From: Escherichia coli
GTDB taxonomy: Bacteria; Pseudomonadota; Gammaproteobacteria; Enterobacterales; Enterobacteriaceae
Reading direction: 5' to 3' (one strand)
Assembly (NCBI RefSeq): GCF_044647545.1
Contig: NZ_CP172818.1
DNA: 64,000 bases
The notes under the pieces are model-generated. The model was given only the letters and a program-made list of their open reading frames with translations. It had not been told where the DNA came from and did no database searches. Of this stretch, positions 17,368 to 55,424 are shown piece by piece. The position numbers and the translations under genes were made by a program. Within the stretch, counting starts at the first letter, position 1. The number at the start of each line of letters is the position of its first letter.

Positions 17368-17396
17368 TGCTTCCTTGTTTTAAGTAAAGATAATAA

Positions 17397-19018
<1,622 letters not shown>

Positions 19019-19027
19019 TTTGCATCC

Positions 19028-19681: not shown

Positions 19682-19852
19682 TATAGCCTAATAACGCGCA
19701 TCTTTCATGACGGCAAACAATAGGGTAGTATTGACAAGCCAATTACAAATCATTAACAAAAAATTGCTCTAAAGCATCCGTATCGCAGGACGCAAACGCA
19801 TATGCAACGTGGTGGCAGACGAGCAAACCAGTAGCGCTCGAAGGAGAGGTGA

Positions 19853-21103
19853 ATGGAAAGTAAAGTAGTTGTTCCGGCACAAGGCAAGAAGATCACCCTG
19901 CAAAACGGCAAACTCAACGTTCCTGAAAATCCGATTATCCCTTACATTGAAGGTGATGGAATCGGTGTAGATGTAACCCCAGCCATGCTGAAAGTGGTCG
20001 ACGCTGCAGTCGAGAAAGCCTATAAAGGCGAGCGTAAAATCTCCTGGATGGAAATTTACACCGGTGAAAAATCCACACAGGTTTATGGTCAGGATGTCTG
20101 GCTACCTGCTGAAACCCTTGATCTGATTCGTGAATATCGCGTTGCCATCAAAGGCCCGCTGACCACTCCGGTTGGTGGTGGTATTCGCTCTCTCAACGTT
20201 GCTCTGCGCCAGGAACTGGATCTCTACATCTGCCTGCGTCCGGTACGTTACTATCAGGGCACTCCAAGCCCGGTTAAACACCCTGAACTGACCGATATGG
20301 TTATCTTCCGTGAAAACTCGGAAGACATTTATGCGGGTATCGAATGGAAAGCAGACTCTGCCGACGCTGAGAAAGTGATTAAATTCCTGCGTGAAGAGAT
20401 GGGCGTGAAGAAAATTCGCTTCCCGGAACATTGCGGCATCGGTATTAAGCCGTGTTCTGAAGAAGGCACCAAACGTCTGGTTCGTGCAGCGATCGAATAC
20501 GCAATTGCTAACGATCGTGACTCTGTGACCCTGGTGCACAAAGGCAACATCATGAAGTTCACCGAAGGCGCGTTTAAAGACTGGGGCTACCAGCTGGCGC
20601 GTGAAGAGTTTGGCGGTGAACTGATCGACGGCGGCCCGTGGCTGAAAGTTAAAAACCCGAACACCGGCAAAGAGATCGTCATTAAAGACGTGATTGCTGA
20701 TGCATTCCTGCAACAGATCCTGCTGCGTCCGGCTGAATATGATGTTATCGCCTGTATGAACCTGAACGGTGACTACATTTCTGACGCCCTGGCAGCGCAG
20801 GTTGGCGGTATCGGTATCGCCCCTGGCGCAAACATCGGTGACGAATGCGCCCTGTTTGAAGCCACCCACGGTACTGCGCCGAAATATGCCGGTCAGGACA
20901 AAGTAAACCCAGGCTCTATTATTCTCTCCGCTGAGATGATGTTACGCCATATGGGCTGGACTGAAGCCGCAGACTTGATTGTTAAAGGTATGGAAGGCGC
21001 AATCAACGCCAAGACTGTAACCTATGACTTCGAACGTCTGATGGAAGGCGCTAAACTGCTGAAATGTTCAGAGTTTGGTGACGCGATCATCAAGAATATG
21101 TAA
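19853..21103 (+). CDS. icd: isocitrate dehydrogenase (NADP)
   Basis: 416-aa ORF; the last ~53 codons lie inside the prophage-borne duplicated segment. Confidence 0.95.
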
Positions 21104-21154
21104 TTACTACATGTGTTAAATATTGTAACGGGCGTATAACACGCCCGTTGTTTT
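20943..21154 (+). repeat. attL-side copy of the 212-bp direct duplication (icd 3' end plus terminator)
   Basis: Appears identical to 36118..36329 by visual alignment at a constant offset of 15175 bp. Confidence 0.85.
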
Positions 21155-21156
21155 TT
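21127..21156 (+). terminator. rho-independent terminator of icd
   Basis: Stem aacgggcg / cgcccgtt with 7-nt loop followed by TTTTTT. Confidence 0.8.
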
Positions 21157-21518
21157 GTTAGGCTGCTAACGGTTATCAAAATTTTATCAAAAAAAGTTAT
21201 CAAAACCCCTCGGTAGTTTTGGGGTAGGCTGGCCGGTCAGGTGGTAGTTCTACTACTAGTCTCCCACATAGATATTCCTTAGCTTTTTATTATTGCTGGC
21301 GGACGCTCGTTAATATTTAAGGTCTTCATTGATTAAGACATCCCCAAAGTTAGTTATGTATTCACTGTTATTAGGACAATTATGAATTACCACTCCTTAC
21401 ACCCGCTCAAATATTGTTAAATTGCCGGTTTTGTATCAACTACTCACCCGGGACTCGCCAGGGGACAGCCAACAGGCATTGGGTGCAATCACCTTAGCGT
21501 TCAGGTACATGCGGAATG

Positions 21519-21543
21519 TAAAAAAGGCCGCGAGCGCGGCCCC
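21519..21543 (-). terminator. rho-independent terminator downstream of ymfD
   Basis: Minus strand: GGCCGCGCTCGCGGCC hairpin followed by TTTTTT, 55 nt beyond the ymfD stop. Confidence 0.65.
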
Positions 21544-21596
21544 TTCACATACATCTTTAGTACTGAGACTGTTTAACCTAGGGAATTATTATCGTA

Positions 21597-22262
21597 TTAT
21601 ATTGCATTACAACTCCCAACAGTGACATATGAACTTCCTGCTTTACTCCACGACTTTAATATTTCAAGGCCATGTGAAGAACATATTTCTTGCACTGCGA
21701 GTTCATCGAGTAATCCATAGTAAGAAACACTTTTTGAATTTTTGTAAATGTATCCGTAAAGATGTTTTCTTCCTGTTTCGTATTTTTTGAAGTATGAGCT
21801 TTTATATTGATTTACAATAAGAGTCTCACCTCCTGATTTTAGTAATCTCTTGATGCTAAGAACTATTTTGTCGATTGTATCCCGACAAGGAACGGCAGAG
21901 AGAACATTAGAGCAAAGGATGAAATCGTAACCCCCAATTATTTTGTCGACATCCTCGAAAGCAACTGTATTTGCATTTTTATAATATCGTGGGACATAGT
22001 CAATAATTTTAGTTTTAATTCCTCTAATAATTTGCTCTCTTTCAAGTTGCCTTTTCGAGTCTAGAAAAGTAACTTCATCAAATTTACTGATTAATTCATC
22101 AGAATATCTAAGTTTTCCGCAGCCAAAATCAAGGGCGTGGCCATTTTTCTCAATGCTTCTAATATACTCGCAAAGATATCTAGAGGGCATCGTATGAGGT
22201 TTTGCTGCATTCTCTGAGCGAATATTAACTCCGTGCATATTATAGTTCAAAGCAAGTACCAT
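21597..22262 (-). CDS. ymfD: putative SAM-dependent methyltransferase (prophage cargo)
   Basis: 221-aa ORF; class I MTase motif I LDFGCGK; AT-rich codon usage; start abuts the ymfE stop. Confidence 0.75.
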   Translation of the reverse strand: MVLALNYNMHGVNIRSENAAKPHTMPSRYLCEYIRSIEKNGHALDFGCGKLRYSDELISKFDEVTFLDSKRQLEREQIIRGIKTKIIDYVPRYYKNANTVAFEDVDKIIGGYDFILCSNVLSAVPCRDTIDKIVLSIKRLLKSGGETLIVNQYKSSYFKKYETGRKHLYGYIYKNSKSVSYYGLLDELAVQEICSSHGLEILKSWSKAGSSYVTVGSCNAI

Positions 22263-22976
22263 TCAATTAATGTTATTTTTAGTGAAAAATTCTTTTATTT
22301 TATCGTCCGGGATTTTTCCGACTTGACTTTCAGTTCTGGGCTTAACTGTCAAAGCAAAGATAATACCACTCACTGAGAATGATAAAATTACAAAAAAGAA
22401 TAAAGACAGCAAAGAACCTTCAACATGAAAAATATCCATTTGTTTGCAAAAAAAGATTATTAGGAAGGAAATTAATGCAATTATCGAAAATTCAAAAAAT
22501 ATCCAAAAATAGTATACTTTATTCCAGAAGAGTTCAATATAATGTTTGTCTTCAATTTTTCTTACTTCAGGGTAATATAGATTGCTCATTACATTGTGAG
22601 CTTCATCTTTATTTAATTTTCTGTTGACTCCAGCTCTCCGTGATAACGGTTTTATAATTAGATGCTTATCCCAAAGATATCGCACCCGAAGTAGTTTGGC
22701 TGCATTGTTATGTAGGTCTAACGCACCGCTAATTAAATATGCAAAAATCGCAAAAGCACAAGGTAATATACCAAAAGATAGTGCCCAATTAATAAAGCTC
22801 TCATGATCTTTAATAGGTGGGACATACTTGGTTGGTAATGTTATTAAAGGGATGTATTCGTAAATAACTAGAAGTATGCAATATATTAGCGTATTTAAGA
22901 AAGTTGCTTTATGAAGTTTAGGCAACATTTCATTATAATTTTTGGGGGGTTCGAACATATTATTCACCTGAGTCAC
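22263..22976 (-). CDS. ymfE: multi-pass membrane protein (prophage cargo)
   Basis: 237-aa ORF with about 4 predicted hydrophobic helices; very AT-rich; first gene of a two-gene minus-strand operon with ymfD. Confidence 0.7.
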   Translation of the reverse strand: MTQVNNMFEPPKNYNEMLPKLHKATFLNTLIYCILLVIYEYIPLITLPTKYVPPIKDHESFINWALSFGILPCAFAIFAYLISGALDLHNNAAKLLRVRYLWDKHLIIKPLSRRAGVNRKLNKDEAHNVMSNLYYPEVRKIEDKHYIELFWNKVYYFWIFFEFSIIALISFLIIFFCKQMDIFHVEGSLLSLFFFVILSFSVSGIIFALTVKPRTESQVGKIPDDKIKEFFTKNNIN

Positions 22977-23162
22977 GCTTTAGGATAGTGTAATGGTAAT
23001 ATTTAATTAAGTGTCATTATATACTTTTCAGTAGGTTAGTTACAATTTTTTGTATCTGTTCAGGCTGACCTAGCTTCGCTGACAGACAATATTGTGATCA
23101 GTAGCACGTATCGAGGAGGAGTAGCGCTACAAATTTGACGCTGGGTGAGAATCTGAAATTGA

Positions 23163-23234
23163 TAGAAATGAAATAATGAAATAATGAAATGATGAAATGA
23201 TGAAATGATGAAATGATGAAATGATGAAATGATG
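23163..23234. repeat. tandem octamer repeat: (AAATAATG)x2 then (AAATGATG)x6
   Basis: Directly readable perfect 8-bp tandem array in the divergent intergenic region between ymfE and lit. Confidence 0.9.
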
Positions 23235-23424
23235 ACAGAGTGTCCAGTGGGCACGGATGGTGTCTTACGACATGCTTACCTTAATCGTTCCCAGTGTGCC
23301 TATAGCAGATATTCTAAACATGTCGATAATTCATTACGCATATAGTATCGAACATAGAAAAAACTGAAGATTCATCTTATTTTGTATATACTACCTAGCC
23401 CAACAATGTAGAGGTTAACGAAAA

Positions 23425-24318
23425 ATGCGCTCACCAATTTGTCATCTTTTCTCAGCAATTAATTCATCACCATTTAAGATTGCACCAGAGAAGGAGCAAG
23501 ATCTTAAAACGATAGTTGACGACAAAAAAATTATAATTTCAGTTGTGAGTGAACCTGGTTTTAATATCCGAGTCAGGAAGAATGAGAGTAATAATTCACA
23601 TGAAATAGTTCTAACAGTAGCTTCACTTGAATATATTTGGGCATTTTCCAATTTCTTTTGGGTTTTTACGCAAGAGTACTCCAAATCTCAGAAAAATAAT
23701 GATGAGCACTTTGATTTAACAGGAAAAAATAGGCTTAAAAAGTCTGATGAACTTCTTAAATGGGCAAGGAAAAACTTGCAAACAACAGGTTGCGAATCAT
23801 GGCCTAAAAAATGTCCCAAGCCAGAAGCATATTTACAAGGAAGCGAAGACTCACAAGTTGCTAGCGAGATATTTCTTTGTGCTATTGCTTGGATTCTTCA
23901 TCATGAAATAAGTCATGTTGTTTTACAGCATCCATTGGTCACTACAGCATTCTCCACTCAAGAGGAGCGTGAAGCAGATTCACATGCTACAAAATGGATA
24001 TTAGGCAACCTGTATGAATCCGCTCCTGAATTAAAGAAACGTGCACTTGGCATTGCTACGGCAGTGCTTTGTATACAAAGCTTAGAAGTTGAAAATTACT
24101 TCTGTTTACAAAATACACACCCAGCTGCATATGAGCGTATATATTCGAATATTTCATGCTACCCTGTCGGAAATGAAGAGTTGATTGAAGCTCTATGTAC
24201 AGTGATGCTTCAATATCTTTTCCATGGCAAAAATATCAATGTGAATCTAGATGGGGAGTCCTTTTCATCGATTTTAGGTGATCTTCTCTGTGATATTTCA
24301 CGTCTTACCAGTAACTGA
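23425..24318 (+). CDS. lit: Lit cell-death zinc metalloprotease (phage-exclusion protease targeting EF-Tu)
   Basis: 297-aa ORF with HEXXH motif in ILHHEISHVVLQH; AT-rich. Confidence 0.85.
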   Translation: MRSPICHLFSAINSSPFKIAPEKEQDLKTIVDDKKIIISVVSEPGFNIRVRKNESNNSHEIVLTVASLEYIWAFSNFFWVFTQEYSKSQKNNDEHFDLTGKNRLKKSDELLKWARKNLQTTGCESWPKKCPKPEAYLQGSEDSQVASEIFLCAIAWILHHEISHVVLQHPLVTTAFSTQEEREADSHATKWILGNLYESAPELKKRALGIATAVLCIQSLEVENYFCLQNTHPAAYERIYSNISCYPVGNEELIEALCTVMLQYLFHGKNINVNLDGESFSSILGDLLCDISRLTSN

Positions 24319-24408
24319 TATGGCTGTCCGCCGCTCGCTTAAAGTGGACTTTTTAGTTTTTATCATGTGCGGTGAGAAATTCAATGTGGCGTTGAGATGC
24401 TTAAAGGT

Positions 24409-25536
24409 TCACAACGCTACTTTGCTCCATCCTTTACCTCGATCATCATGATAACGATCGGTTTGTTGTTGTGTTTTATGACCAAGTAGTTTTTGTGTGT
24501 CTAACCCCTGTTCTTTATACAGACGTTCAGATAAAGACCTTTGCTCATGGAATGTCGCAGGTGAACCCTCTCCCCAGTCAATTCTTGCTAAATCTCTCGC
24601 TTTACTAAAATTCATCGTCAATGTATTGGCTTTAACCTGCGCTCCGCGCTCTGCTTGTGAAGTTGAACGAAAAAAATGCACTAAGTATGCACTGACTGCA
24701 TAGTCACGGCAGCGGGCTACTACATCGCGTAAACTCCAGTTAATCGCATTGAGGCGAAGAGAAAGAGGAATTGCGATTTTGCTCCCGGTCTTTTCCTGAA
24801 TGACATGAAGATGATCATCCCAAATATCGCTAAATTTCATACGCGAAATATCACCTAACCGCTGACCAGTAACCAGCGCTAACAGCATGGCATTTCCCAT
24901 GTAACGATGAGTAGCGTCTGCGATATCGAAGATTTTTTTCCATTCTTCAAGGCTCAGCCGTTGTCGGGTAATTTTTCTTCTTGGTTGTTTAGTGGCTAAT
25001 GCTGGGTTATAGCCAGGAGGTACTTCTCCGTAGTGCTGCGCCTCTTTGAAAACATCAATCAGGACGGAGCGAACTACTTGTGCCATTCTTGGCCGCCCAG
25101 CGGCGATATACTCATCAAGCAATTGTGCTATATCTCTGACATCAACGGCTGAGATCAACTTCATTCCTGCTCGTTCTCTGAGCAAGGATACTGGTTTAGC
25201 TTTTTGTTTATAGGTGTTGAGTCTTATATCACCACTTTTAAGCCTGTCATCCTGGATCGCTTGATAGCGATCTAACCAGGTTGACGTTGTGATAGCCTTT
25301 CCTTTGCTGGTTGCGATCCTGTCACTGATAGCCAGAATCTGCCGGGTTCTTTGTTCAGCCAGGCGAGTGTTGGCCTCAGTGGCAATAGCGATAGCTTCAG
25401 CTTCGTTTGTTCCCAAAGCATGGAATTTTCCTGTCACTGGATGCTTATACCGCCAATAGACTTTATTTACCTTCCTACTATAAAGCGGATATAAGTTAGG
25501 GACTGAAACATTATTCTTACGCGGTCTGGCTGCCAT
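24409..25536 (-). CDS. intE: tyrosine integrase
   Basis: 375-aa ORF; C-terminal catalytic region with R..HxxR..Y (LLGHKTQQQTDRYHDD). Confidence 0.9.
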   Translation of the reverse strand: MAARPRKNNVSVPNLYPLYSRKVNKVYWRYKHPVTGKFHALGTNEAEAIAIATEANTRLAEQRTRQILAISDRIATSKGKAITTSTWLDRYQAIQDDRLKSGDIRLNTYKQKAKPVSLLRERAGMKLISAVDVRDIAQLLDEYIAAGRPRMAQVVRSVLIDVFKEAQHYGEVPPGYNPALATKQPRRKITRQRLSLEEWKKIFDIADATHRYMGNAMLLALVTGQRLGDISRMKFSDIWDDHLHVIQEKTGSKIAIPLSLRLNAINWSLRDVVARCRDYAVSAYLVHFFRSTSQAERGAQVKANTLTMNFSKARDLARIDWGEGSPATFHEQRSLSERLYKEQGLDTQKLLGHKTQQQTDRYHDDRGKGWSKVAL

Positions 25537-25762
25537 TACTCAAAATCCGTTGCAAAAGTAATGAGTCATTTTTCTTGATTACAGGTGTTACCAACTCCCC
25601 AACTAACTCGGCGTCCTCACGCACTCGCCATAACCGGCCTTGTTTCATGGCCGGTGGACAAAATAAATTCTGCTTAGCATAACGACGCAATGTGGACACA
25701 CTTGGAGGATTACTTCTGTATTTTTCAGCAGCCCATTCTTCAAGAGTTAACATTTGAAGCAT
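25517..25762 (-). CDS. xisE: excisionase (AlpA/Xis-like HTH)
   Basis: 81-aa ORF overlapping the int start; typical int-xis arrangement. Confidence 0.8.
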   Translation of the reverse strand: MLQMLTLEEWAAEKYRSNPPSVSTLRRYAKQNLFCPPAMKQGRLWRVREDAELVGELVTPVIKKNDSLLLQRILSNGSQTA

Positions 25763-26228
25763 ATGCGATCACCTTATTACTACACTAACTGCTTAGTCTC
25801 ATCATATCGACCCTGCAAGGCCGATTAGTTTCTCCACAAAACAGAGAAGAACACCTGCGGCGGCAGCCGCCCGGATGGATTGGGTTATGAGCCCGTCGTC
25901 CGGTGATGCTCTTCTCTGTTTTGTAAAAAGGACGGTACCAGCCTGAAGCAAGGGTACAAACTGGTACCGCCAGGACTACACACAGCATAAAGTTGTGGTG
26001 CCGGGTGCCTCCCGGTGCCTGGCGAAGGTTGCACACCAGACGGGTGGGTATCCACAGAAGGTCGACTGTCAGCCTCAACCTTAACCCGCGTGCGCTGAGC
26101 CGCATTCACCACAACGCTAAGGATTCTCTTTGGTTGAAAATACTTAGCTGTTATGTGCCTGTCTTTTCACCACTTCAGGCTCGGTGGTATGCTGGAGTTC
26201 TCACACAGCCAGCAAGCAAGGAAACTTA

Positions 26229-26570
26229 ATGAACCAGTTTTATGTTCACGTTCGTCTATTTGAAGACACAGCCGAACAGACCAAAAAATTTGAAGAATTA
26301 ATGCTTAACTTTCTGTACCAGAAAACAGTTAAAGAGTCTGACGATAGCTGCTGCAGACTGATTCCAGAGGGATATATCCTCAAAAGTACAATGAACTGCC
26401 AACAAATCCTTGATCAAACATTTTCAATTGCTAACAGTGCCGGTGTTGACGCAAATATATTTGTCTGTAAATTTGAACAAAGCGCATGCTTACTTCCGTC
26501 TGCTTCCTTAGTTGGTAACGATTTCGTTCATTACGATCTTACGCCTAAGCCCATCAAGCTCGATTCTTAA
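26229..26570 (+). CDS. ymfI: prophage protein of unknown function
   Basis: Start MNQFYVHVRLF gives 113 aa; no recognisable motif. Confidence 0.55.
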   Translation: MNQFYVHVRLFEDTAEQTKKFEELMLNFLYQKTVKESDDSCCRLIPEGYILKSTMNCQQILDQTFSIANSAGVDANIFVCKFEQSACLLPSASLVGNDFVHYDLTPKPIKLDS

Positions 26571-26816
26571 AGCCTTAACCATTGTGTCGTGATAAACACG
26601 GCTCACCTTCTCTCCATTGCATGGCAGAGGGGTGAGTGTGTTAGCCATGAAATTCATGAACTCGGTTCGACCAGGGGCTTGCGCCCCGCAAGTCTTTAAT
26701 GCCTGTTTTGCTAACAAAATGCGGGCCTCAGTGCCTGCATTTGGCTCTATCTGCTGCAAACGTTTAGCGTCTTCCAGCAACAATGCGATCACATGCTTCA
26801 AATTCTGCTCATTCAT
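26508..26816 (-). CDS. ymfJ: prophage protein of unknown function
   Basis: 102-aa ORF downstream of a strong promoter-like element. Confidence 0.6.
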   Translation of the reverse strand: MNEQNLKHVIALLLEDAKRLQQIEPNAGTEARILLAKQALKTCGAQAPGRTEFMNFMANTLTPLPCNGEKVSRVYHDTMVKALRIELDGLRRKIVMNEIVTN

Positions 26817-26922
26817 CTATTCTCTCCACTGAAATCATCCGCTAACGAATCATCCCGGTCTTCGTACGTACCGGGCGGGCTACTTCGTGGGCGTCCTGCC
26901 TGTTTGTTGTTTCTCTTGGGTA

Positions 26923-26951
26923 CATTATGTATCTCAAAGGTACATTGTCAA
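26923..26951 (-). promoter_or_regulatory. sigma70-like promoter for ymfJ with overlapping GTACC operator half-sites
   Basis: Minus strand TTGACA, 17-nt spacer, ATAATG; tGTACC motifs overlap both hexamers. Confidence 0.5.
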
Positions 26952-26952
26952 G

Positions 26953-26978
26953 TATAAAAAAACCTGCCGAAGCAGGTT
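26953..26978 (-). terminator. rho-independent terminator of cohE
   Basis: Minus strand AACCTGC-ttcg-GCAGGTT followed by TTTTTTT, 13 nt after the cohE stop. Confidence 0.75.
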
Positions 26979-26990
26979 CATAAACATTGA

Positions 26991-27665
26991 TTAGGCTTTG
27001 ATTTTGTATCTTCTTGGTTTTCCTGAGAAAATCACAGTACCAATTATAGAGCAATTACCGTTGATCTTAATGTAAGGCTCAGGCCAGTTTGGGTTTAACG
27101 CTTTGAGATAACGCTGTGTCCCATCTTCTATCAACCTTTTGAAGGTGGTTTCACCTGTATCGTGCATCAATGCAATAACGTCGTCACCGTGGCAGGCAGG
27201 TACTTCAGGATCGACAAAAATCATGTCTCCCGGGCGGTACTCATCAATCATTGAATCACCTATTACCCGCAAGATATAAGTCATTTCCCCACAGGGTACA
27301 GGGCAGGGATACGTTTCTGCTGTGCTCAAATCAACCTCAGAATATCCAACTTCTTTCCATGCTCCGGCCTGTACCCATGATATGACAGGGACTAATGTGA
27401 TTTGTTTATTAGTGATTGAAACATCAGGTTTTTTTGTGATGTTCGTTGTCTGGTGTTCTTGATCGAGCCATCCTACAGGCAGGTCGAAACATTTTTCGAT
27501 GTGTCGTGCCATGCTGTCACCGATATTTTTAGTAGCACCATCTCCCATAAACCTGCTGGTCTGGGTTGGCTCGCGATCAATCATAGTGGCAAAGGAAGAA
27601 TTCCCGCCAACACCATCTCTCAGTTTTCTGGCGTTAGACCGCCGGATGTCATGGATTGTTTTCAT
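26991..27665 (-). CDS. cohE: CI-like prophage repressor (HTH plus LexA-type S24 peptidase domain)
   Basis: 224-aa ORF; C-terminal VIGDSMIDEYRPGDMIFVDPE self-cleavage domain; divergent from cro-like gene. Confidence 0.85.
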   Translation of the reverse strand: MKTIHDIRRSNARKLRDGVGGNSSFATMIDREPTQTSRFMGDGATKNIGDSMARHIEKCFDLPVGWLDQEHQTTNITKKPDVSITNKQITLVPVISWVQAGAWKEVGYSEVDLSTAETYPCPVPCGEMTYILRVIGDSMIDEYRPGDMIFVDPEVPACHGDDVIALMHDTGETTFKRLIEDGTQRYLKALNPNWPEPYIKINGNCSIIGTVIFSGKPRRYKIKA

Positions 27666-27680
27666 AACGAAATTAAAACC

Positions 27681-27701
27681 CTTGTACCGTTAAGGTACAA
27701 G
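27681..27701. promoter_or_regulatory. operator palindrome CTTGTACC-gttaa-GGTACAAG between cohE and croE
   Basis: Perfect 8-bp inverted repeat with 5-bp spacer; related half-sites ATGTACACC/GGTACAT at 27731..27750. Confidence 0.6.
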
Positions 27702-27705
27702 TATC

Positions 27706-27734
27706 TTGAAGGTTCATTTCAATCATGTAATATG
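27706..27734 (+). promoter_or_regulatory. candidate croE promoter
   Basis: TTGAAG, 16-17 nt spacer, TAATAT, then GGAGG SD at 27741..27745. Confidence 0.4.
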
Positions 27735-27755
27735 TACACCGGAGGTACATATTGT

Positions 27756-27956
27756 ATGAAAGCGTATTGGGACTCTTTAACCAAAGAACAGCAGGGCGAG
27801 TTGGCCGGAAAAGTTGGCTCAACACCTGGCTACTTACGGCTGGTTTTCAATGGCTATAAAAAAGCCAGTTTTGTGCTGGCTAAAAAACTTGAGCAATACA
27901 CATCAGGTGCAATTACGAAATCTGACTTAAGACCGGATATCTATCCGAAAGATTAG
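27756..27956 (+). CDS. croE: Cro-like regulator
   Basis: ATG 27756 (MKAYWDSLTKEQQ) gives 66 aa; GGAGG 11 nt upstream; divergent from cohE. Confidence 0.75.
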   Translation: MKAYWDSLTKEQQGELAGKVGSTPGYLRLVFNGYKKASFVLAKKLEQYTSGAITKSDLRPDIYPKD

Positions 27957-27987
27957 CAGAACACTTTCAATTTTTAACCACAGAACG

Positions 27988-28554
27988 ATGAGGCTAATCG
28001 TGGGTAAGCATCACTGGAAAATAGAAAAACAGCCTGAGTGGTACGTGAAAGCTGTCAGAAAAACTATCGCGGCGTTGCCGAGTGGTTACGCTGAAGCGGC
28101 TGACTGGCTCGATGTAACAGAAAACGCTTTATTCAACCGCCTTCGTGCAGATGGCGATCAGATTTTCCCGCTGGGATGGGCAATGGTTTTACAGCGTGCT
28201 GGTGGCACTCACTTCATTGCTGATGCTGTGGCGCAGTCTGCAAATGGCGTCTTTGTGTCTCTTCCTGACGTCGAGGATGTGGACAACGCCGATATTAACC
28301 AGCGTCTGCTGGAAGTCATTGAACAGATCGGCAGTTATTCAAAACAGATTCGTTCAGCAATCGAAGACGGTGTAGTGGAACCGCATGAGAAGACAGCAAT
28401 TAACGACGAGCTGTATCTCTCAATTTCGAAGCTGCAGGAGCATGCAGCACTTGTCTACAAAATTTTTTGCATTTCAGAAAGTAACGCCCGCGAGTGTGCA
28501 GCTCCGGGCGTCGTGGCGTCGATTGCTTCTGGTTGTGGAGAAACTAACGCATGA
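27988..28554 (+). CDS. ymfL: prophage regulatory protein (CII-like family)
   Basis: 188-aa ORF immediately downstream of croE, early-region position. Confidence 0.6.
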
Positions 28555-28889
28555 ACAGTTTAACAACACACTACCGTCGCTCGCAACTGATTGCACTTCC
28601 TGTACCGGGTGGAAAAGCGAAGGTGGAGTATTGCTATGCAGTGAATGTACCAGGTGACAGGGAAATTGTAACCCACAGCTTTGCAGAGTGGGCTGTGGGT
28701 GATTTCAACCGGCAGAAGGAGACAGTCCTTTGCGACAAGTTAACCGCTGGTTCAAAGATCACTACGGAGTGCCCGTCAGAGTCATTCGTTGGGAGCCGGA
28801 AACACAACGGGTTATCTACCTCCGTGAAGGCTATGAACATGAATGCTTCAGTCCGGTCGAACAGTTTCGTCGTAAATTCAGGGAAATAG
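28551..28889 (+). CDS. ymfM: prophage protein of unknown function
   Basis: 112-aa ORF overlapping the ymfL stop. Confidence 0.55.
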
Positions 28890-28898
28890 AGGTCGGTC

Positions 28899-30266
28899 AT
28901 GAGCACTAAATTAACCGGCTATGTATGGGATGGTTGCGCTGCATCAGGCATGAAGTTATCCAGCGTGGCAATTATGGCCCGCCTGGCTGATTTCAGTAAT
29001 GACGAAGGTGTGTGCTGGCCATCAATTGAAACCATTGCCCGTCAGATTGGCGCGGGGATGAGTACCGTCAGAACGGCTATCGCACGGCTGGAAGCAGAAG
29101 GCTGGTTAACGCGTAAGGCGCGTCGCCAGGGTGATGGTTCATCACCCCACTGTGCGGTGGTGGATGAATATCACGAGCACGCCACCGATGCGCTTTATAC
29201 CACGATGCTTACCGGGATGGGGGCGCGACGTCAGCCACTGATGTGGGCCATCACCACCGCCGGGTACAACATTGAGGGGCCGTGCTACGACAAGCGGCGG
29301 GAAGTTATCGAGATGCTCAACGGTTCGGTACCCAACGATGAACTGTTCGGGATCATCTATACCGTTGACGAAGGCGATGACTGGACCGACCCGCAGGTGC
29401 TGGAAAAAGCCAACCCGAATATTGGCGTGTCGGTTTATCGCGAATTTTTGTTAAGTCAGCAGCAGCGTGCGAAAAATAACGCCCGTCTGGCAAACGTCTT
29501 TAAAACAAAACACCTCAATATCTGGGTGTCGGCGCGTTCGGCGTATTTCAACCTGGTGAGCTGGCAGAGCTGCGAGGATAAATCACTGACCCTTGAGCAG
29601 TTCGAGGGGCAGCCGTGCATTCTGGCCTTTGACCTGGCGCGTAAGCTGGATATGAACAGCATGGCGCGACTTTATACCCGCGAGATTGACGGTAAAACGC
29701 ATTACTACAGTGTGGCCCCGCGTTTCTGGGTACCGTATGACACGGTGTACAGCGTCGAGAAAAATGAAGATCGCCGGACAGCCGAACGCTTTCAGAAATG
29801 GGTGGAAATGGGCGTTCTGACTGTTACCGCTGGTGCGGAGGTGGATTATCGCTACATCCTCGAGGAGGCCAAAGCGGCGAACAAAATCAGCCCGGTCAGT
29901 GAGTCACCCATCGACCCCTTCGGGGCGACCGGGCTGTCGCATGACCTTGCTGATGAAGACCTGAACCCCATCACCATCATTCAGAACTACACCAACATGT
30001 CCGATCCGATGAAAGAGCTGGAAGCGGCGATTGAATCGGGGCGCTTTCATCATGACGGCAATCCCATCATGACCTGGTGTATCGGCAACGTGGTCGGCAA
30101 AACCATTCCGGGTAACGATGATGTGGTGAAGCCTGTCAAGGAGCAGGCGGAAAACAAAATCGATGGTGCGGTTGCACTGATTATGGCGATTGGCAGAGCA
30201 ATGCTGTACGAGAAAGAAGACACGCTGTCTGACCACATTGAGTCCTATGGGATCCGCTCGCTTTAA
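28899..30266 (+). CDS. oweE: fusion ORF: replication-initiator-like winged-helix N-terminus joined to terminase large-subunit C-terminal region
   Basis: 455-aa ORF; N-terminal roughly 90 aa resemble phage replication initiators, the remainder resembles a terminase large subunit C-terminal domain. Confidence 0.65.
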
Positions 30267-30277
30267 CTGAGGTAATT

Positions 30278-30445
30278 ATGATCATGCTGATTCTCCGCCT
30301 CTGGTGGGCGGCGGTGCTTTTGCTGGCGTATGGTGCCGCTCATTTATCCCCCGGGGGTTTTGTTCCCGGGGCGTTGTGCCTGTTCTGGTCGTTGCTGGTG
30401 GCGCGAATCTGTTCGACACAGTCGTCTGTCGGCGGAGGTAAATAG
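30278..30445 (+). CDS. ymfR: small hydrophobic membrane peptide (55 aa)
   Basis: ATG 30278 to TAG 30445, below the ORF-track cut-off; two hydrophobic stretches ([33 protein letters not shown]). Confidence 0.4.
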
Positions 30446-30651
30446 TGTTCTTTTCGGGATTATTTCAACGAAAAAGCGACGCACCGGTGACCACGCCAGC
30501 AGAGCTGGCGGATGCCATCGGGTTGTCCTACGACACCTATACCGGAAAGCAGATCAGCAGCCAGCGGGCCATGCGACTGACGGCGGTTTTTTCCTGTGTC
30601 AGGGTGCTGGCAGAGTCGGTCGGGATGTTGCCTGCAATCTGTATCACCTGA
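30445..30651 (+). pseudogene. beeE: portal protein N-terminal fragment
   Basis: 68-aa ORF with portal-like N-terminus; downstream region has no continuous frame. Confidence 0.45.
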
Positions 30652-30841
30652 ACGGCAGCCTGAAACAGAGAGCCACGGCGAGCGTCTGCATAGCTGATCT
30701 CCACGCATCCCAATGGCTATATGACGCCGCAGGAGTTCTGGGAGCTGGTGGTCACCTGTCTGTGCCTGCGGGAAACTTTTACGCCTACAAAGTGAAAGCA
30801 TTTGGCGAAGTGGCTGAAACTGCTGCCCGTCGATCCCGGCT

Positions 30842-31633
30842 GTGTGGTATATGCGCTGGGAAGGTGTCAGCGATGGCCTGAAGGTGACCGCCGGGAGTGT
30901 TATTCAGCGCGATGACCTGGTGCAGTACACGACAACTGACGATGCAACCAGCTCCGGTGGTGTCCTGCGCGTGCCGATCACTTGCTCAACTACAGGCGCG
31001 GTCGGTAACGCTGACGACGGTACGGCATTAATCCTGGTCACGCCGGTGAATGGTCTGCCGTCTTCCGGTGTTGCAGATACCCTGACTGGCGGATTTGATA
31101 CTGAAGAGCTGGAAACGTGGCGCGCCCGCGTCATTGAGCGGTATTACTGGACGCCTCAGGGCGGGGCTGACGGGGACTATGTCGTCTGGGCTAAAGAAGT
31201 GTCAGGCATTACCCGTGCATGGACATACCGCCACTGGATGGGAACGGGGACTGTCGGTGTGATGATTGCCAGCAGTGACCTGATTAATCCCATTCCGGAA
31301 GAATCAACGGAAACGGCGGCAAGACAACACATTGAGCCACTGGCCCCGGTGGCAGGCTCTGATTTGTATGTATTCAGGCCGGTGGCGCATAAAGTGGATT
31401 TTCATATCCGCGTGACGCCGGACACACCGGAAATACGGGCTGCCATCACCGCGGAGTTGCGTTCGTTCCTGCTGCGTGATGGTTATCCGCAGGGAGAACT
31501 GAAGGTATCGCGTATCAGTGAGGCGATTTCCGGTGCGAACGGGGAATACAGCCATCAGTTGCTTGCACCGGCAGACAATATCTCCATTGCAAAAAATGAA
31601 CTGGCGGTTCTGGGGACGATTTCATGGACGTGA
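30842..31633 (+). CDS. jayE: baseplate J-like protein (possibly truncated)
   Basis: 263-aa ORF resembling the C-terminal portion of Mu gp47/P2 J baseplate proteins; precedes gp48-like gene. Confidence 0.6.
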
Positions 31634-32208
31634 CAAACGATGATTACATCCGCCTGTTATCGGCACTGTTGCCGCCCGGTCCTGCATGGTCAGCCAGCGA
31701 TCCGGCGATTGCCGGTGCGGCACCTTCATTAACCCGCGTTCATCAGCGTGCGGATGCCCTGATGCGGGAGCTGGATCCGCGCACCACCACTGAACTGATA
31801 AACCGCTGGGAGCGTCTGTGCGGTCTGCCGGATGAATGTATTCCCGCAGGGACACAGACCCTTCGCCAGCGTCAGCAACGGCTGGATGCGAAGGTTAATC
31901 TGGCGGGCGGCATCAATGAGGATTTTTACCTTGCACAGCTTGCTGCCCTGGGCAGACCAGACGCCACTATCACGCGATACGATAAAAGCACGTTCACCTG
32001 CTCATCGGCCTGTACTGACGCAGTGAATGCGCCGGAATGGCGGTATTACTGGCAGGTCAACATGCCAGCCGCCACCAACACCACCTGGATGACATGTGGC
32101 GATCCCTGTGATTCCGCACTGCGTATCTGGGGCGACACCGTTGTCGAGTGCGTGCTTAACAAACTCTGCCCTTCGCATACCTACGTAATTTTTAAATATC
32201 CGGAGTAA
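31624..32208 (+). CDS. ymfQ: tail protein (P2 I / Mu gp48-like)
   Basis: 194-aa ORF overlapping the jayE end and followed by the tail-fibre gene. Confidence 0.6.
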
Positions 32209-32211
32209 TCC

Positions 32212-32841
32212 ATGCATCGTATAGACACGAAAACCGCGCAGAAGGATAAGTTCGGCGCGGGTAAGAACGGTTTTACCCGTGGTAACCCCCAGACCGGCAC
32301 ACCTGCCACCGATCTGGATGATGACTACTTTGACATGTTGCAGGAAGAACTTTGTAGCGTGGTGGAGGCCTCCGGTGCCAGCCTGGAGAAAGGGCGGCAT
32401 GACCAGATGCTTACCGCACTTCGTGCGCTGCTGTTAAGCCGCAAGAATCCGTTTGGCGATATCAAATCGGATGGCACTGTGCAAACGGCTCTCGAAAACC
32501 TTAGTTTAGGAGAAGGAGCAAAACTCAATGCAGCAACGGCTACATTAGGACGCACCGGTTTCATAGCTATACCGGTTATGATTGGTGGTATTGAGCAATC
32601 AGTAATCATTCAGTGGGGGTGGAATGCCGCAAAAGCATCTGCCTCTGGGGGGGATGGAAATACAGTTGTATTCCCGGTTGCGTTTAATAATGCCTGTGTT
32701 GCCGTTGTTGCAAATTATGACAATGTCAGCGCACCTATCAATGCAGTGGCAACGGGGGGATATACAACCACTTCGTTTTTATTACGGTGCGCAGCTCAAA
32801 CGGGTAGTTATTACTATAACTGGATTGCTATTGGGTATTAA
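32212..32841 (+). CDS. stfP: side tail fibre protein (constant part plus currently expressed variable part)
   Basis: 209-aa ORF; Gly/Ala/Thr-rich fibre-like C-terminus; crossover site lies inside the ORF at 32489..32514. Confidence 0.7.
   Translation: MHRIDTKTAQKDKFGAGKNGFTRGNPQTGTPATDLDDDYFDMLQEELCSVVEASGASLEKGRHDQMLTALRALLLSRKNPFGDIKSDGTVQTALENLSLGEGAKLNAATATLGRTGFIAIPVMIGGIEQSVIIQWGWNAAKASASGGDGNTVVFPVAFNNACVAVVANYDNVSAPINAVATGGYTTTSFLLRCAAQTGSYYYNWIAIGY
32489..32514 (+). other. Gin/Hin/Pin-type 26-bp recombination site (left)
   Basis: CTCTCGAAAACC-TT-AGTTTAGGAGAA fits the half-site pattern TTnTCnnAAACC / GGTTTnnGAGAA. Confidence 0.7.
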
Positions 32842-32842
32842 G

Positions 32843-33319
32843 ATGAAAATATACTGTTGCTTAAATACCGTTGGTTTTTTTATGGATGGCTGTGGCGTCA
32901 TTCCGCCAGATTCTAAAGAAATAACGGCAGAACACTGGCAGTCATTATTAAAATCTCAAGCTGAAGGAGGCGTGATCGATTTTTCTGTTTTTCCTCCTTC
33001 TATTAAAGAGGTTATCCGTACTCATGATGATGAAGTCGCAGATGCGAACTTTCAAAAGCAGATGCTTATCTCTGATGCAACTGATTTTATCAATAGCAGA
33101 CAGTGGCAGGGTAAGGCTGCATTGGGAAGACTTAAAGAAGATGAGCTGAAACAATCTGATTTGTGGGCTGGATTATCTGGACGCACTGGCGCTGGTCGAT
33201 ACCGCCAGTGCGCCGGATCTGAATGGCCTACGCCTCCGGCAGTTCAGGCCAGTAAATATCCGGTACAGTGCTGGTATCCGTTGCCATCACCGCGTCAATG
33301 TAATCCAGCACGGCGTTAA
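32843..33319 (+). CDS. tfaP: tail fibre assembly protein
   Basis: ATG 32843 (MKIYCC) 2 nt after stfP; WPTPP motif near the C-terminus; the frame stays open to 33319 (158 aa) and overlaps convergent tfaE, so the true stop is uncertain. Confidence 0.55.
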   Translation: MKIYCCLNTVGFFMDGCGVIPPDSKEITAEHWQSLLKSQAEGGVIDFSVFPPSIKEVIRTHDDEVADANFQKQMLISDATDFINSRQWQGKAALGRLKEDELKQSDLWAGLSGRTGAGRYRQCAGSEWPTPPAVQASKYPVQCWYPLPSPRQCNPARR

Positions 33320-33830
33320 GTCGGGTGTTTTCTGTCTGCGTCAGCTTCCTCCCGGCCTGCAATTTCAGTTGAATCAGACTAATTGAAGCCATTGCAGTAT
33401 CAATCAGTGACTGGCGCTGTGCTTCTGCCGCTTCTATTGCGGCACCGTATTGTGCCTCGGTATCGGTTACCCATTTCTCACCATCCCATTTATCGTATGG
33501 TGTTAACGGAGCGATAGTGGTCATATTTTCAGGGTAATCCCCTGGCGCTGTGATTTCTTTTGGTTCTCCCGTTTCGGTGCTATAAACAATTTCACCGCGA
33601 TGGTCTGGCACATATTTCCACGAGTTCAAATCCGTTGAGCGGCAAATTGCATAACCCGTTTTATGTGTACCAGGTGCATCTAAACAAGAACATGCCGGGA
33701 TACCGACACCGACAGCAAGATATTCGGTTGATGTTGAGATATATTCCTGTGTCCCATTATCATAGTTATAAACGGTAATATCCCCTGCCTTTACCGCGAT
33801 CAGCGCATCATTTAATACAGCTCCACCCAT
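33228..33830 (-). CDS. tfaE: tail fibre assembly protein (alternate orientation)
   Basis: 200-aa ORF ending in the canonical Tfa motif DIYWPELPEA. Confidence 0.75.
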   Translation of the reverse strand: MGGAVLNDALIAVKAGDITVYNYDNGTQEYISTSTEYLAVGVGIPACSCLDAPGTHKTGYAICRSTDLNSWKYVPDHRGEIVYSTETGEPKEITAPGDYPENMTTIAPLTPYDKWDGEKWVTDTEAQYGAAIEAAEAQRQSLIDTAMASISLIQLKLQAGRKLTQTENTRLNAVLDYIDAVMATDTSTVPDIYWPELPEA

Positions 33831-34390
33831 TATGCAGCCCTCACGATATAATTAAATGAAATATTTCGTGGACGTGATTCGTTACCGAATTTATCTGAAC
33901 CATCAGTATTTCTCGCTGAATATGTTTGGAGGATTGTCCCTGATGATGGATTCGCATTATATTCATTTGTTCCTGCTGGATAGTATGACATTGCACTATT
34001 GTCATCTTTGAAAACAGCAGACATCAATCCATCACCACCACTTCCGTAAGCAGTTGTAAGAAATGACGGTGATCGAAAGAAAGACTATTTTGTGCCGAAA
34101 GTAAGGGAACGACCAGAATCTACCCCGCGCCCATCATCCCAGCCACGAATAAACTCACCACGTAAATCAGGCAATTTATTTGTCGGGTAAGCCTTCGCCA
34201 GTTTTGGATATTCAACGGCAGAAAAAGCCGCACCGTTGCATTTCAGCCAGCCAGTAGGCGGTGTGGCTGAAGGCCACGGAACAGGCACACCAACGGGTAA
34301 TGCCGAACCTTCTCCCAAACCAAGGTTTATGAAAATGCGGAATAAGCGGCAAATGGCATCATTCCTGCTTTTGTCAGGGAGAGCTACCAT
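33830..34390 (-). pseudogene. stfE: alternate tail-fibre variable segment with in-frame TAG
   Basis: Two same-frame ORFs (34085..34390 and 33830..34027) separated by an amber codon at 34085..34087; N-terminal part carries a tail-collar-like motif (PVGVPVPWPSATPPTGWLKCNG...LPDLRGEFIRGWDDGRG). Confidence 0.6.
34308..34333 (-). other. Gin/Hin/Pin-type 26-bp recombination site (right, inverted)
   Basis: Minus strand TTTTCATAAACC-TT-GGTTTGGGAGAA; same TT core as the left site; adjacent to pin. Confidence 0.7.
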
Positions 34391-34941
34391 GCTTATTGGC
34401 TATGTATGTGTGTCAACAAATGACCGAAACACAAATCTACAGCGTAATGCGCTGAACTGTGCAGGATGCGACTCATTTTTGAAGACAAGATAAGCGGTAC
34501 AAAGTCTGAAAGGCCGGGACTGAAAAAACTGCTCAGGACATTATCGGCAGGTGACACGCTGGTGGTCTGGAAACTGGACCGGCTGGGGCGTAGTATGCGG
34601 CATCTGGTCATTCTGGTTGAGGAGTTGCGCGAACGTGGCGTTAATTTTCGCAGCCTAACAGATGCTATTGATATCAGCACATTCGATGGGGCGTTTTTCT
34701 TTATGTGATGGGGGCCTTGGCTGAAATTGAGCGTGAACTGATTGTTGAACGAACAAAAGCTGGACTGGAAACTGCTCGTGCACAGGGACGAATTGGTGGA
34801 CGTCGTCCCAAACTTACACCAGAACAATGGGCACAAGCTGGACGATTAATTGCAGCAGGAACTCCTCGCCAGAAGGTGGCGATTATCTATGATGTTGGTG
34901 TGTCAACTTTGTATAAGAGGTTTCCTGCAGGGGATAAATAA
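34389..34941 (+). pseudogene. pinE: serine invertase Pin disrupted by two frameshifts
   Basis: Resolvase/invertase sequence spread over three frames: 34389..34493 (MLIGYVCVSTNDRNTNLQRNALNCAGC), 34466..34708 (GDTLVVWKLDRLGRSM) and 34705..34941 (C-terminal HTH); total span 553 bp is two bases short of a 555-bp intact frame. Confidence 0.7.
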
Positions 34942-35047
34942 AGTTAAAGACACTTTGTGTACAAAAGAAAGTAAAACAACAGCAACTTGTTGCAATTTTA
35001 TCAATAAAAGTAGTATTGTCGTGAAAAATTGATTAAAGATTAATATT

Positions 35048-35881
35048 ATGCATGTTTTTGATAATAATGGAATTGAACTGAAAGCTGAGTGTTCGATAGG
35101 TGAAGAGGATGGTGTTTATGGTCTAATCCTTGAGTCGTGGGGGCCGGGTGACAGAAACAAAGATTACAATATCGCTCTTGATTATATCATTGAACGGTTG
35201 GTTGATTCTGGTGTATCCCAAGTCGTAGTATATCTGGCGTCATCATCAGTCAGAAAACATATGCATTCTTTGGATGAAAGAAAAATCCATCCTGGTGAAT
35301 ATTTTACTTTGATTGGTAATAGCCCCCGCGATATACGCTTGAAGATGTGTGGTTATCAGGCTTATTTTAGTCGTACGGGGAGAAAGGAAATTCCTTCCGG
35401 CAATAGAACGAAACGAATATTGATAAATGTTCCAGGTATTTATAGTGACAGTTTTTGGGCGTCTATAATACGTGGAGAACTATCAGAGCTTTCACAGCCT
35501 ACAGATGATGAATCGCTTCTGAATATGAGGGTTAGTAAATTAATTAAGAAAACGTTGAGTCAACCCGAGGGCTCCAGGAAACCAGTTGAGGTAGAAAGAC
35601 TACAAAAAGTTTATGTCCGAGACCCGATGGTAAAAGCTTGGATTTTACAGCAAAGTAAAGGTATATGTGAAAACTGTGGTAAAAATGCTCCGTTTTATTT
35701 AAATGATGGAAACCCATATTTGGAAGTACATCATGTAATTCCCCTGTCTTCAGGTGGTGCTGATACAACAGATAACTGTGTTGCCCTTTGTCCGAATTGC
35801 CATAGAGAATTGCACTATAGTAAAAATGCAAAAGAACTAATCGAGATGCTTTACGTTAATATAAACCGATTACAGAAATAA
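35048..35881 (+). CDS. mcrA: HNH endonuclease McrA (restriction of modified DNA)
   Basis: 277-aa ORF; C-terminal HNH motif HHVIPLSSGGADTTDNCVALCPNCHRELH; AT-rich. Confidence 0.85.
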   Translation: MHVFDNNGIELKAECSIGEEDGVYGLILESWGPGDRNKDYNIALDYIIERLVDSGVSQVVVYLASSSVRKHMHSLDERKIHPGEYFTLIGNSPRDIRLKMCGYQAYFSRTGRKEIPSGNRTKRILINVPGIYSDSFWASIIRGELSELSQPTDDESLLNMRVSKLIKKTLSQPEGSRKPVEVERLQKVYVRDPMVKAWILQQSKGICENCGKNAPFYLNDGNPYLEVHHVIPLSSGGADTTDNCVALCPNCHRELHYSKNAKELIEMLYVNINRLQK

Positions 35882-36117
35882 AATTATTTATTAAAGTCAC
35901 ATTTAAGACGTAATACCCTACAGGGTAAAAATTTTCTCTGATCTTAACTTCTGCAAATGTTAACTGCTATTTTTATGCTAAAAATGGTTATCAAAACTCA
36001 AAAACACATGTTTATAATCAATGAGTTATAGAAATGCTAAGGGCTAATGAGTTATATGCAAATTAGTAAAATTATGTTGCTATGTCAGATAGTTACGATT
36101 TAGTCATCTAACTAATG

Positions 36118-36278
36118 TACGCCATATGGGCTGGACTGAAGCCGCAGACTTGATTGTTAAAGGTATGGAAGGCGCAATCAACGCCAAGACTGTAACCTAT
36201 GACTTCGAACGTCTGATGGAAGGCGCTAAACTGCTGAAATGTTCAGAGTTTGGTGACGCGATCATCAAGAATATGTAA
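36118..36278 (+). pseudogene. icdC: icd 3' fragment (last ~53 codons) left at attR
   Basis: Sequence appears identical to icd 20943..21103 but has no upstream coding continuation. Confidence 0.8.
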
Positions 36279-36329
36279 TTACTACATGTGTTAAATATTG
36301 TAACGGGCGTATAACACGCCCGTTGTTTT
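36118..36329 (+). repeat. attR-side copy of the 212-bp direct duplication
   Basis: Same sequence as 20943..21154, including the terminator hairpin. Confidence 0.85.
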
Positions 36330-36380
36330 ATTTATGTGGGTATTATTAATAGCACATTGAGCATATTTATATGAAGCCCA

Positions 36381-36704
36381 TTACTTGAGCCCATATGGGC
36401 ATATTTTTATAATGCAACTATTATGCAAACATTTATTTGTTATTTTGCTTTCTCCTGGAGGACACTCTTGACTGCTTTTGAGTAAACTCCATAAATCCTT
36501 GTTGAATGGTGCGATGTTATAAATAGTAATAGGATATTCTTTATCCTTAAGGATAATACCAGATTTAACCGGTGTAAATATCCTGCCAGGAGGAAGAAAT
36601 ATAGTGGATTGATACCAGATGATCATTTTCATATCACCCCATATGGCTGAAAAAGATATGCCGCATGTAGGTTGAATTACCGTGTCAATTACTATCCACT
36701 TCAT
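36381..36704 (-). CDS. iraM: anti-adaptor protein IraM (RssB inhibitor)
   Basis: 107-aa ORF in a strongly AT-rich islet with a long AT-rich upstream region. Confidence 0.75.
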
Positions 36705-37148
36705 TTGTTATGTCTTATCCCACGGTGCTTAATATAGTTCATTTGGATGTTCATTTCTTGATTTTGCATATGTGTATATTACTCCCAAAAAAATAAATTA
36801 ATTAAAAATTAATGTCATTATCTATATAAAACAAAATTTAAAGCAAGGAATCTCAATAGAGATTAAACAAAATGAGATTTAGTGAAAACATTAAATTATT
36901 CACTTCGTTTTAGATTTGTTTAGCTAAAATGTTATACATTCAAATGACTGAATATTCTGTAATTAAAACATAGCCTTTATGCTACTTTGAGCCAATTTGC
37001 TAAACATTATGGTTGGCCTTTTAATATAACGATAATGATGAATATAAGCATGACCTGAGAATAAGGTTTCAATTTTTTAGTTATATAAAAATGGTTAAAC
37101 CCGTTCCTGACTAAAATACATATAATCGGATGATGACTAAACCAAAAC

Positions 37149-37197
37149 ACATGTGCGTTAAGTATTGAAACGGGCGTATGGCACGCCCGTTGGTTTT
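37149..37197 (+). terminator. degenerate third copy of the icd 3'UTR/terminator (att-like remnant)
   Basis: acatgtgcgttaagtattgaaacgggcgtatggcacgcccgttggtttt matches the icd terminator region at roughly 85 percent; hairpin plus T-tract retained. Confidence 0.6.
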
Positions 37198-55092: not shown

Positions 55093-55424
55093 AATCATTC
55101 GCCTCTTTAAATATATAAATTGTAATGAAACTCCTGTTTTACAACTATTAAAGAATTTTACTTCATCTAATTCATAGTTAGCCGGGCGGGATGCGTCAAT
55201 GTCTTTATTTCTATTAATATGATAAATATCAAACAATGTTTAATGTCATTATGGCTGATGCTTCTATTCTATTTTTTAGCCGGGTGATATTTTTCATTTC
55301 TGCTGGATGAGCGTCGTCGCCAGAAGGCGCGTGAGCACAGGATAAGAGAACGAAAAATCAGCAGTCTATGCAGCGACAAATATTGATAGCCTGAATCAGT
55401 ATTGATCTGCTGGTAAGAACAGAC

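Follow-up and report, generated by a model that had tools for sequence, protein, structure and literature searches.

A K-12-type mcrA gene at the attR-proximal end of a defective e14 prophage in Escherichia coli

Introduction

Escherichia coli K-12 has the restriction phenotype known as McrA/RglA, and the mcrA locus has been mapped to the prophage e14 (PMC2847215). EcoKMcrA is dimeric; its HNH domains hold the two subunits together and form a single site for DNA binding and cleavage (PMC6182155), while its two N-terminal domains bind DNA separately and sense 5-methylcytosine (5mC) or 5-hydroxymethylcytosine (5hmC) in the Y5mCGR context without base flipping (PMC7145662). In cells, EcoKMcrA restricts M.HpaII-modified plasmid DNA and phage T4gt, whereas glucosylated T4 and lambda escape; cleavage in vitro is weak and needs Mn2+, and restriction is lost in the H228A and H229A mutants except at high overexpression (PMC6182155). 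Here we describe a 64,000-nucleotide stretch of E. coli DNA (contig NZ_CP172818.1; hereafter the window) in which the gene at 35048–35881 almost certainly encodes EcoKMcrA, a type IV restriction endonuclease that works alone; the defective prophage e14 carries this gene as cargo at its attR-proximal end.

The literature already describes McrA, with its structure, specificity and location in e14, and it also covers Lit and the fact that e14 is defective. The discovery value of the assignment is thus small, and the result is mainly a clean annotation. The side observations are a small illustration of prophage ends as exchange points for defence genes and cargo that outlasts its phage: a mosaic e14 off the K-12 background, K-12-exact cargo beside remnants diverged by 3–10%, and alternative defence genes in the corresponding slots of relatives.

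Results

The gene is a base-for-base copy of K-12 mcrA

The gene and the spacer in front of it are as follows.

mcrA: 35048..35881, plus strand; 277-residue type IV modification-dependent restriction endonuclease EcoKMcrA, 100% nucleotide identity to K-12 mcrA
pinE–mcrA spacer: 34942..35047, plus strand; 106 bp, AT-rich, K-12-identical; presumed mcrA promoter and ribosome-binding site

The list of open reading frames (ORFs) in the window gives mcrA as an intact frame with an ATG start. All 834 of its 834 bases match MG1655, BW25113, DH5alpha and other K-12 strains, and the surrounding interval 34900–36116 is 100% identical to E. coli K-12 MG1655. A finer alignment places the start of the K-12-identical block inside pinE at 34729 and its end at the prophage end, 36117, with agreement at every base over 319 bp upstream and 236 bp downstream of the gene. 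A chance ORF is impossible because the frame is a base-for-base copy of a characterised gene. The GC content of mcrA is 38.4% as compared with 47.1% for the whole window, and that of the 1-kb bin 35001–36000 is 36.1%. An antisense ORF of 95 residues at 35544–35831 lies wholly inside the characterised gene and was rejected as spurious.

At the protein level, the product matches the PDB entry 6GHC ('5-methylcytosine-specific restriction enzyme A') at 276 of 277 residues (E=2.9e-190). The sole mismatch is at position 196, which is K in the window protein and E in the crystal; the K196E variant is the form that was used for crystallisation (PMC6182155). The PADLOC model PDLC03656 (mREase_IV, type IV methyl-directed restriction enzyme) is matched across its full length (6.5e-203). 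The N-terminal NEco reader domain occupies approximately residues 1–143, where the chain of PDB entry 6R64 is matched at E=2.5e-94 and the NEco domain entries 6T21 and 6T22 align likewise. The HNH domain (PF01844) spans residues 207–256 (E=3.5e-15; 56.3 bits against a cutoff of 21.4 in Pfam). Within it, the residues H228, H229, N243, H252 and H256 of the HNH (beta-beta-alpha-metal) fold are all kept, and the structural zinc site is intact, with two CxxC motifs contributing C207, C210, C248 and C251; the roles of these residues were defined in PMC6182155. In the reader domain, the methyl-pocket residues S30, W31, G34, N119, T121 and K122, defined in PMC7145662, are all present.

An earlier note, made from the sequence alone, had described an AT-rich ORF of 277 residues here, with an HNH nuclease motif and a match to McrA, at the right end of the prophage. 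The frame is exact and its GC content is below that of the window; the motif was recovered in Pfam, with every catalytic and zinc residue in place; the match to McrA proves to be full nucleotide identity to the K-12 gene, next to the 276 of 277 residues shared with 6GHC; and mcrA is the last gene of the element, the copy of the icd 3' end lying 236 bp past its stop codon.

From the characterised K-12 enzyme, the mode of action may be drawn as follows. Each NEco domain would read Y(5mC)GR or Y(5hmC)GR in duplex DNA with the base not flipped, one methyl pocket being formed by S30, N119 and K122 and the other by W31. In the HNH domain, H229 would activate the attacking water, and the catalytic metal (Mn2+ in vitro) would be held by H228, H252 and H256; C207, C210, C248 and C251 would hold the structural zinc, and N243 would play a structural part. 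The DNA cut would be incoming DNA with 5mC in CpG context, for instance M.HpaII-modified plasmids, or DNA with non-glucosylated 5hmC, such as that of phage T4gt.

The neighbours of mcrA are the pinE pseudogene upstream and attR with icdC downstream, and no partner DNA methyltransferase adjoins it. The only methyltransferase-like gene in e14 is ymfD, 13 kb from mcrA, and DNA-methyltransferase families are absent from its Pfam and NCBIfam matches. Methylation of CCWGG by the host enzyme Dcm creates no McrA target, and a partner methyltransferase is therefore unneeded.

The e14 element is bounded by an exact repeat of the icd 3' end

Four features define the ends of the element.

Defective prophage e14 body: 21155..36117, no strand assigned; collinear with K-12 e14, bounds taken from the empty site of strain MS6198
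attL repeat copy: 20943..21154, plus strand; 3' end of the intact icd gene
attR repeat copy: 36118..36329, plus strand; icdC pseudogene and icd terminator, partial isocitrate dehydrogenase in the K-12 annotation
mcrA–attR arm: 35882..36117, plus strand; AT-rich noncoding DNA, 236 bp, ~27% GC (26.8%); presumed P arm of e14 attP

The insertion measures 15,175 bp including one repeat copy, and a 212-bp perfect direct repeat of the icd 3' end stands at 20943–21154 and 36118–36329. The icd gene itself is intact (416 residues, 19853–21103). At the other end, an icdC ORF fragment lies at 36126–36278 and a terminator-like hairpin at 36300–36326; the copy of the icd 3' end begins at ~36115–36118, 236 bp beyond the mcrA stop codon. 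In E. coli MS6198, which we take to be an ST648 strain, the repeat sequence is single-copy and icd is directly followed by iraM; MS6198 therefore represents the empty site.

The window chromosome is 99.97–100% identical to that of MS6198, with differences around icd and at 44372–45959, and the host flanks are of the MS6198 type (here called ST648-type) right up to the repeats. Because of these flanks, the gutted e14 seems to have entered this ST648-like chromosome by site-specific integration rather than through recombination with a piece of K-12 chromosome. Here, both icd repeat copies have the same sequence, whereas those of K-12 differ from each other; the window attR copy is 86.7% identical to the K-12 attL copy. 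Either gene conversion or the arrival of e14 with a host-like copy would account for the identical repeats.

In the arm between mcrA and attR, the motif GGTTATCAAAAC is found at 35986–35997, and the same motif recurs near attL at 21171 and 21196, with a partial copy at 21184; in the form GGTTATCAAAA(C), it is repeated just inside attL (21171–21207) and occurs once in the attR-side arm, again at 35986–35997. A second direct repeat, AATGAGTTATA, stands at 36020 and 36046. The arm motif is conserved in PEC165, a diverged relative. We regard the GGTTATCAAAAC/GGTTATCAAAA motifs as candidate arm-type binding sites of IntE because this integrase has a lambda-type arm-binding domain. If so, mcrA would lie as near to the end of the element as the attachment machinery permits.

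Other differences were observed in the chromosome around e14. In a ycgH-type autotransporter gene, 1.6 kb (44372–45959) does not align to MS6198 at high identity, and the core of this stretch (44500–45500) has no differences from K-12; it is an allelic swap in the AT-rich passenger-domain region. Between rluE and icd (~19622–19645), MS6198 contains 1.5 kb of further sequence with genes for a DUF1493 protein and an STM2901-family protein; this sequence is absent from the window and from K-12 and present in ON470584. The sole Rfam RNA-family match in the window is the C0299 small RNA at 55326–55404 on the plus strand (107.7 bits), and no tRNA genes were found in the window.

Two deletions removed the virion genes and left lit and mcrA at the ends

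The order of genes along e14 is ymfD, ymfE, lit, intE, xisE, the regulatory region, terminase and portal remnants, baseplate and tail-fibre remnants, the P segment, pinE and mcrA. The features of the left part and the two deletion scars are listed below; the deletions were placed by comparison with strain XH988, whose e14-type prophage (40 kb) is intact.

ymfD: 21597–22262, minus strand; class I S-adenosylmethionine methyltransferase, generic
ymfE: 22263–22976, minus strand; GTG start as listed, 9 bp shorter in the K-12 annotation
lit: 23425..24318, plus strand; Lit cell-death peptidase, K-12-identical
intE: 24409–25536, minus strand; tyrosine integrase (Arm-DNA-bind_1 1.2e-37 and Phage_integrase 1.4e-16 in Pfam), named as in K-12
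xisE: 25517–25762, minus strand; excisionase, named as in K-12
Deletion scar 1: 28899..30266, plus strand; 455-residue in-frame fusion of a replication-protein helix-turn-helix N-terminus to a C-terminal large terminase
Deletion scar 2: 30846..30847, plus strand; portal N-terminus joined to a baseplate-J C-terminus

The fusion at scar 1 carries HTH_36, a partial TerL_ATPase and TerL_nuclease in Pfam. It marks the loss of 10.2 kb, corresponding to XH988 17791–28035, which runs from the replication gene through the methylase, RusA, the Q antiterminator, the lysis cassette and the small terminase into the large terminase. At scar 2, 12.7 kb was lost (XH988 29770–42509), taking the protease, capsid, connector, sheath, tube, tape-measure and baseplate genes, that is, the head and most of the tail. 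The K-12 e14 shares both junctions, and a collinear alignment of 17.6 kb to it, at 98.1% identity, spans the two of them.

Lit is a known phage-exclusion protease (phage T4 late-gene exclusion) and is the defence cargo of the left end. The full-length protein matches Peptidase_U49 in Pfam (1.7e-112), Lit in PADLOC (8.5e-124) and the NCBIfam equivalog 'phage exclusion protein Lit' (1.2e-104; 349.8 bits, the cutoff being 274). The two genes beyond it, ymfD and ymfE, are identical to K-12. YmfD matches only generic methyltransferase families in Pfam and NCBIfam (Methyltransf_12, TehB-like), together with a weak methyltransferase-domain match to PADLOC mad2 (8.6e-5). YmfE has zero matches in Pfam, PADLOC and NCBIfam, and a literature search on ymfD and ymfE found no functional study among the ten papers listed; a host-benefit role for the pair is a guess.

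The same earlier note had placed lit at the left end, regarded the morphogenetic core as deleted and described host-benefit cargo at both extremities. The first of these statements agrees with the PADLOC and NCBIfam matches, and the second with the head, tail, lysis and replication genes that are gone in comparison with XH988. The third holds for lit and mcrA and has no support for ymfD and ymfE, with their generic methyltransferase match and lack of any family match, respectively.

The element is a mosaic relative to K-12 e14, with a breakpoint inside pinE

Two further features lie directly upstream of mcrA.

Invertible P segment: 32501..34323, no strand assigned; stfP/tfaP and tfaE/stfE tail-fibre remnants with 16-bp crossover sites
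pinE pseudogene: 34389..34941, plus strand; serine invertase, directly upstream of mcrA, frame split into three ORFs

Our comparison with K-12 reveals that this e14 is a mosaic. Three blocks are without differences, namely 21500–25500 (ymfD, ymfE, lit and most of intE), 26500–28000 and 34729–36117, whereas 25500–26000, 28000–32500, the P segment and the 5' two-thirds of pinE are diverged by 3–10%. A sharp recombination breakpoint lies within pinE at 34728, the sequence being K-12-identical from 34729 onwards. The 5' two-thirds of pinE is diverged from K-12 by ~10%, and the gene carries two 1-bp deletions, at ~34471 and ~34690. It looks like a natural foreign allele, later broken by these two deletions, because most of the substitutions (28 of 43) affect third codon positions.

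Among 5,426 complete E. coli genomes, the best match to this pinE reaches 94.3%, and none exceeds 94.5% over the region of the P segment and pinE. No GTDB species representative or JGI metagenome contig contains the exact 40-mer over the first pinE frameshift. Among the databases searched, this e14 variant is unique to the window.

The P segment and pinE beside mcrA, which the earlier note overlooked, form a reported phage-defence switch in K-12 (PMC12529663), and pinE is broken here. Inversion of the segment in K-12 is reported to block adsorption of phage T2 (PMC12529663). When the crossover-site sequences were taken from that paper, the right site in the window was found to be exact and the left site (TTAGTTTAGGAGAAGG) to have two mismatches; the orientation of the segment is opposite to that in the MG1655 record CP032667. 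A functional PinE acting on the P segment was not found in the window, the gene being frameshifted and the left crossover site mismatched. Given the broken pinE, the switch may be stuck in one position or may be operated by another Pin recombinase.

mcrA and the attR arm occur together, and relatives carry other genes at the element ends

In the set of 5,426 complete E. coli genomes, mcrA is present in 339 and the attR arm in 336, nearly all of which also have mcrA; from these near-equal counts, the arm and the gene travel together. Most rows of the sample examined for spread are K-12 laboratory lines. The ymfD–ymfE–lit block is found in 282 genomes, in all of them at 99% identity or more.

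The e14-type elements of XH988 and ON470584 (a 'phage' record), both at icd, have mcrA beside the invertase and full sets of head and tail genes. Neither contains ymfD–ymfE–lit between int and attL. In XH988, this slot (16956–19042) holds an AriA/GajA-like ATPase and an ORF of 188 residues, and in ON470584 (35567–37278) a DUF262 NsnA-like protein and an ORF of 216 residues. XH988 also has a KAP NTPase by its lysis genes (PADLOC PDC-S20, 4.5e-177). In PEC165, an acyltransferase and the GIY-YIG defence gene PD-T4-3 (2.2e-140) replace mcrA in the right slot (3296–6143), and a 143-bp remnant of the mcrA 3' end adjoins the conserved attR arm. PEC165 also has a second prophage, with an integrase of its own, directly after icdC.

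Discussion

The full-length identity to a characterised gene, the complete set of reader, catalytic and zinc residues and the position beside attR all point to EcoKMcrA, and mcrA is probably expressed and active in this strain, because the K-12-identical stretch 34729–36117 takes in the whole upstream spacer. Together with lit, mcrA would then be the useful remainder of an element from which ~23 kb of genes for replication, lysis and the virion has been deleted.

Several points weigh against this assignment or against activity of the gene. Cleavage by EcoKMcrA in vitro is weak and not strictly methyl-dependent (PMC6182155). A promoter scan near mcrA gave only weak sigma-70-like matches (9/12), 10 in number as compared with 8.8 ± 4.1 in shuffled sequences, and no mcrA promoter is claimed because such matches are no commoner than in shuffled sequence. 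mcrA and its surroundings are AT-rich, at 27–38% GC. AT-rich DNA is often silenced by H-NS. A methyltransferase that makes McrA targets might be encoded elsewhere in the genome, outside the window.

The first alternative concerns the role of the enzyme and not its identity: its main role might be that of a barrier to CpG-methylated foreign DNA, such as plasmids of other bacteria or eukaryotic host DNA, and not an anti-phage one. The escape of wild-type glucosylated T4 and of lambda from restriction speaks for such a barrier, but T4gt is efficiently restricted (PMC6182155), and the same slot in relatives carries the anti-phage gene PD-T4-3. We consider it unlikely, though worth keeping in mind, that the barrier is the main role; the two roles are mutually compatible, the molecular mechanism being identical.

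A second alternative is that mcrA is intact but silent in this strain, an AT-rich relic hitch-hiking with e14 rather than an active defence. This would agree with the low GC content of the region (38%) and flank (27%), the lack of promoter matches above shuffled sequence and the decay of the adjoining pinE into a pseudogene. However, the interval 34729–36117 equals that of K-12, which has the McrA/RglA phenotype and the mcrA locus on e14 (PMC2847215), and the 834-bp gene and 236-bp flank have accumulated zero substitutions, as compared with ~10% in the 5' part of pinE. A silent relic is accordingly very improbable.

That the ORF is a phage housekeeping HNH nuclease of the packaging (terminase-associated) or homing type can be dismissed, since, although e14-type phages such as XH988 have a small HNH endonuclease beside the small terminase gene and the HNH core weakly matches the HNH domains of IscB, intron maturase and pyocin, the packaging HNH is a different gene in a different place and is deleted here, and the full NEco reader of modified cytosine and the identity to the characterised EcoKMcrA effectively refute it.

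With EcoKMcrA retained as the identity of the gene, its surroundings suggest a wider, tentative reading, to which we give slightly less than an even chance: the ends of e14-family elements are exchangeable defence-gene slots, and the gutted e14 is still moving between lineages. The left slot may run from int to attL and the right slot from the invertase to attR, both next to the attachment sites, and the block of mcrA and attP arm (34729–36117) may move as a recombination cassette with its breakpoint inside pinE. If true, lineages would still be exchanging a non-infectious prophage remnant, borne along by its defence cargo. The slot idea fits, as a modest extension, the general idea that prophages harbour hot spots of defence genes.

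As for known restriction systems, McrBC is GTP-dependent. It is a two-protein system at a separate locus (PMC2847215). McrBC and the SRA-HNH or EVE-HNH fusions (TagI, VcaM4I) follow the same logic as EcoKMcrA, namely a reader and a nuclease with no partner methyltransferase, but the NEco reader of EcoKMcrA is described as not homologous to SRA and as working without base flipping (PMC6182155, PMC7145662). ScoMcrA of Streptomyces coelicolor (5ZMM) is, like McrA, a type IV enzyme, and its HNH domain is homologous (E=7.2e-11 over McrA residues 183–275; PADLOC PDLC03662, 8.2e-12). However, it has 561 residues, and the match is confined to McrA residues 183–275, with nothing matching NEco; it is reported to cleave phosphorothioated DNA too (PMC3009677).

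Among e14-family elements, XH988, ON470584 and PEC165 share with the window the integrase and excisionase type, the icd site and the attR arm. The closest system remains EcoKMcrA (McrA/RglA) of K-12 e14, in which the gene, the upstream spacer and the downstream attP arm are identical and occupy the same place between pinE and icdC. The context differs from that in K-12 in the ST648-like chromosome, in a frameshifted pinE with a 5' part diverged by ~10%, and in the identical icd repeats that enclose the element.

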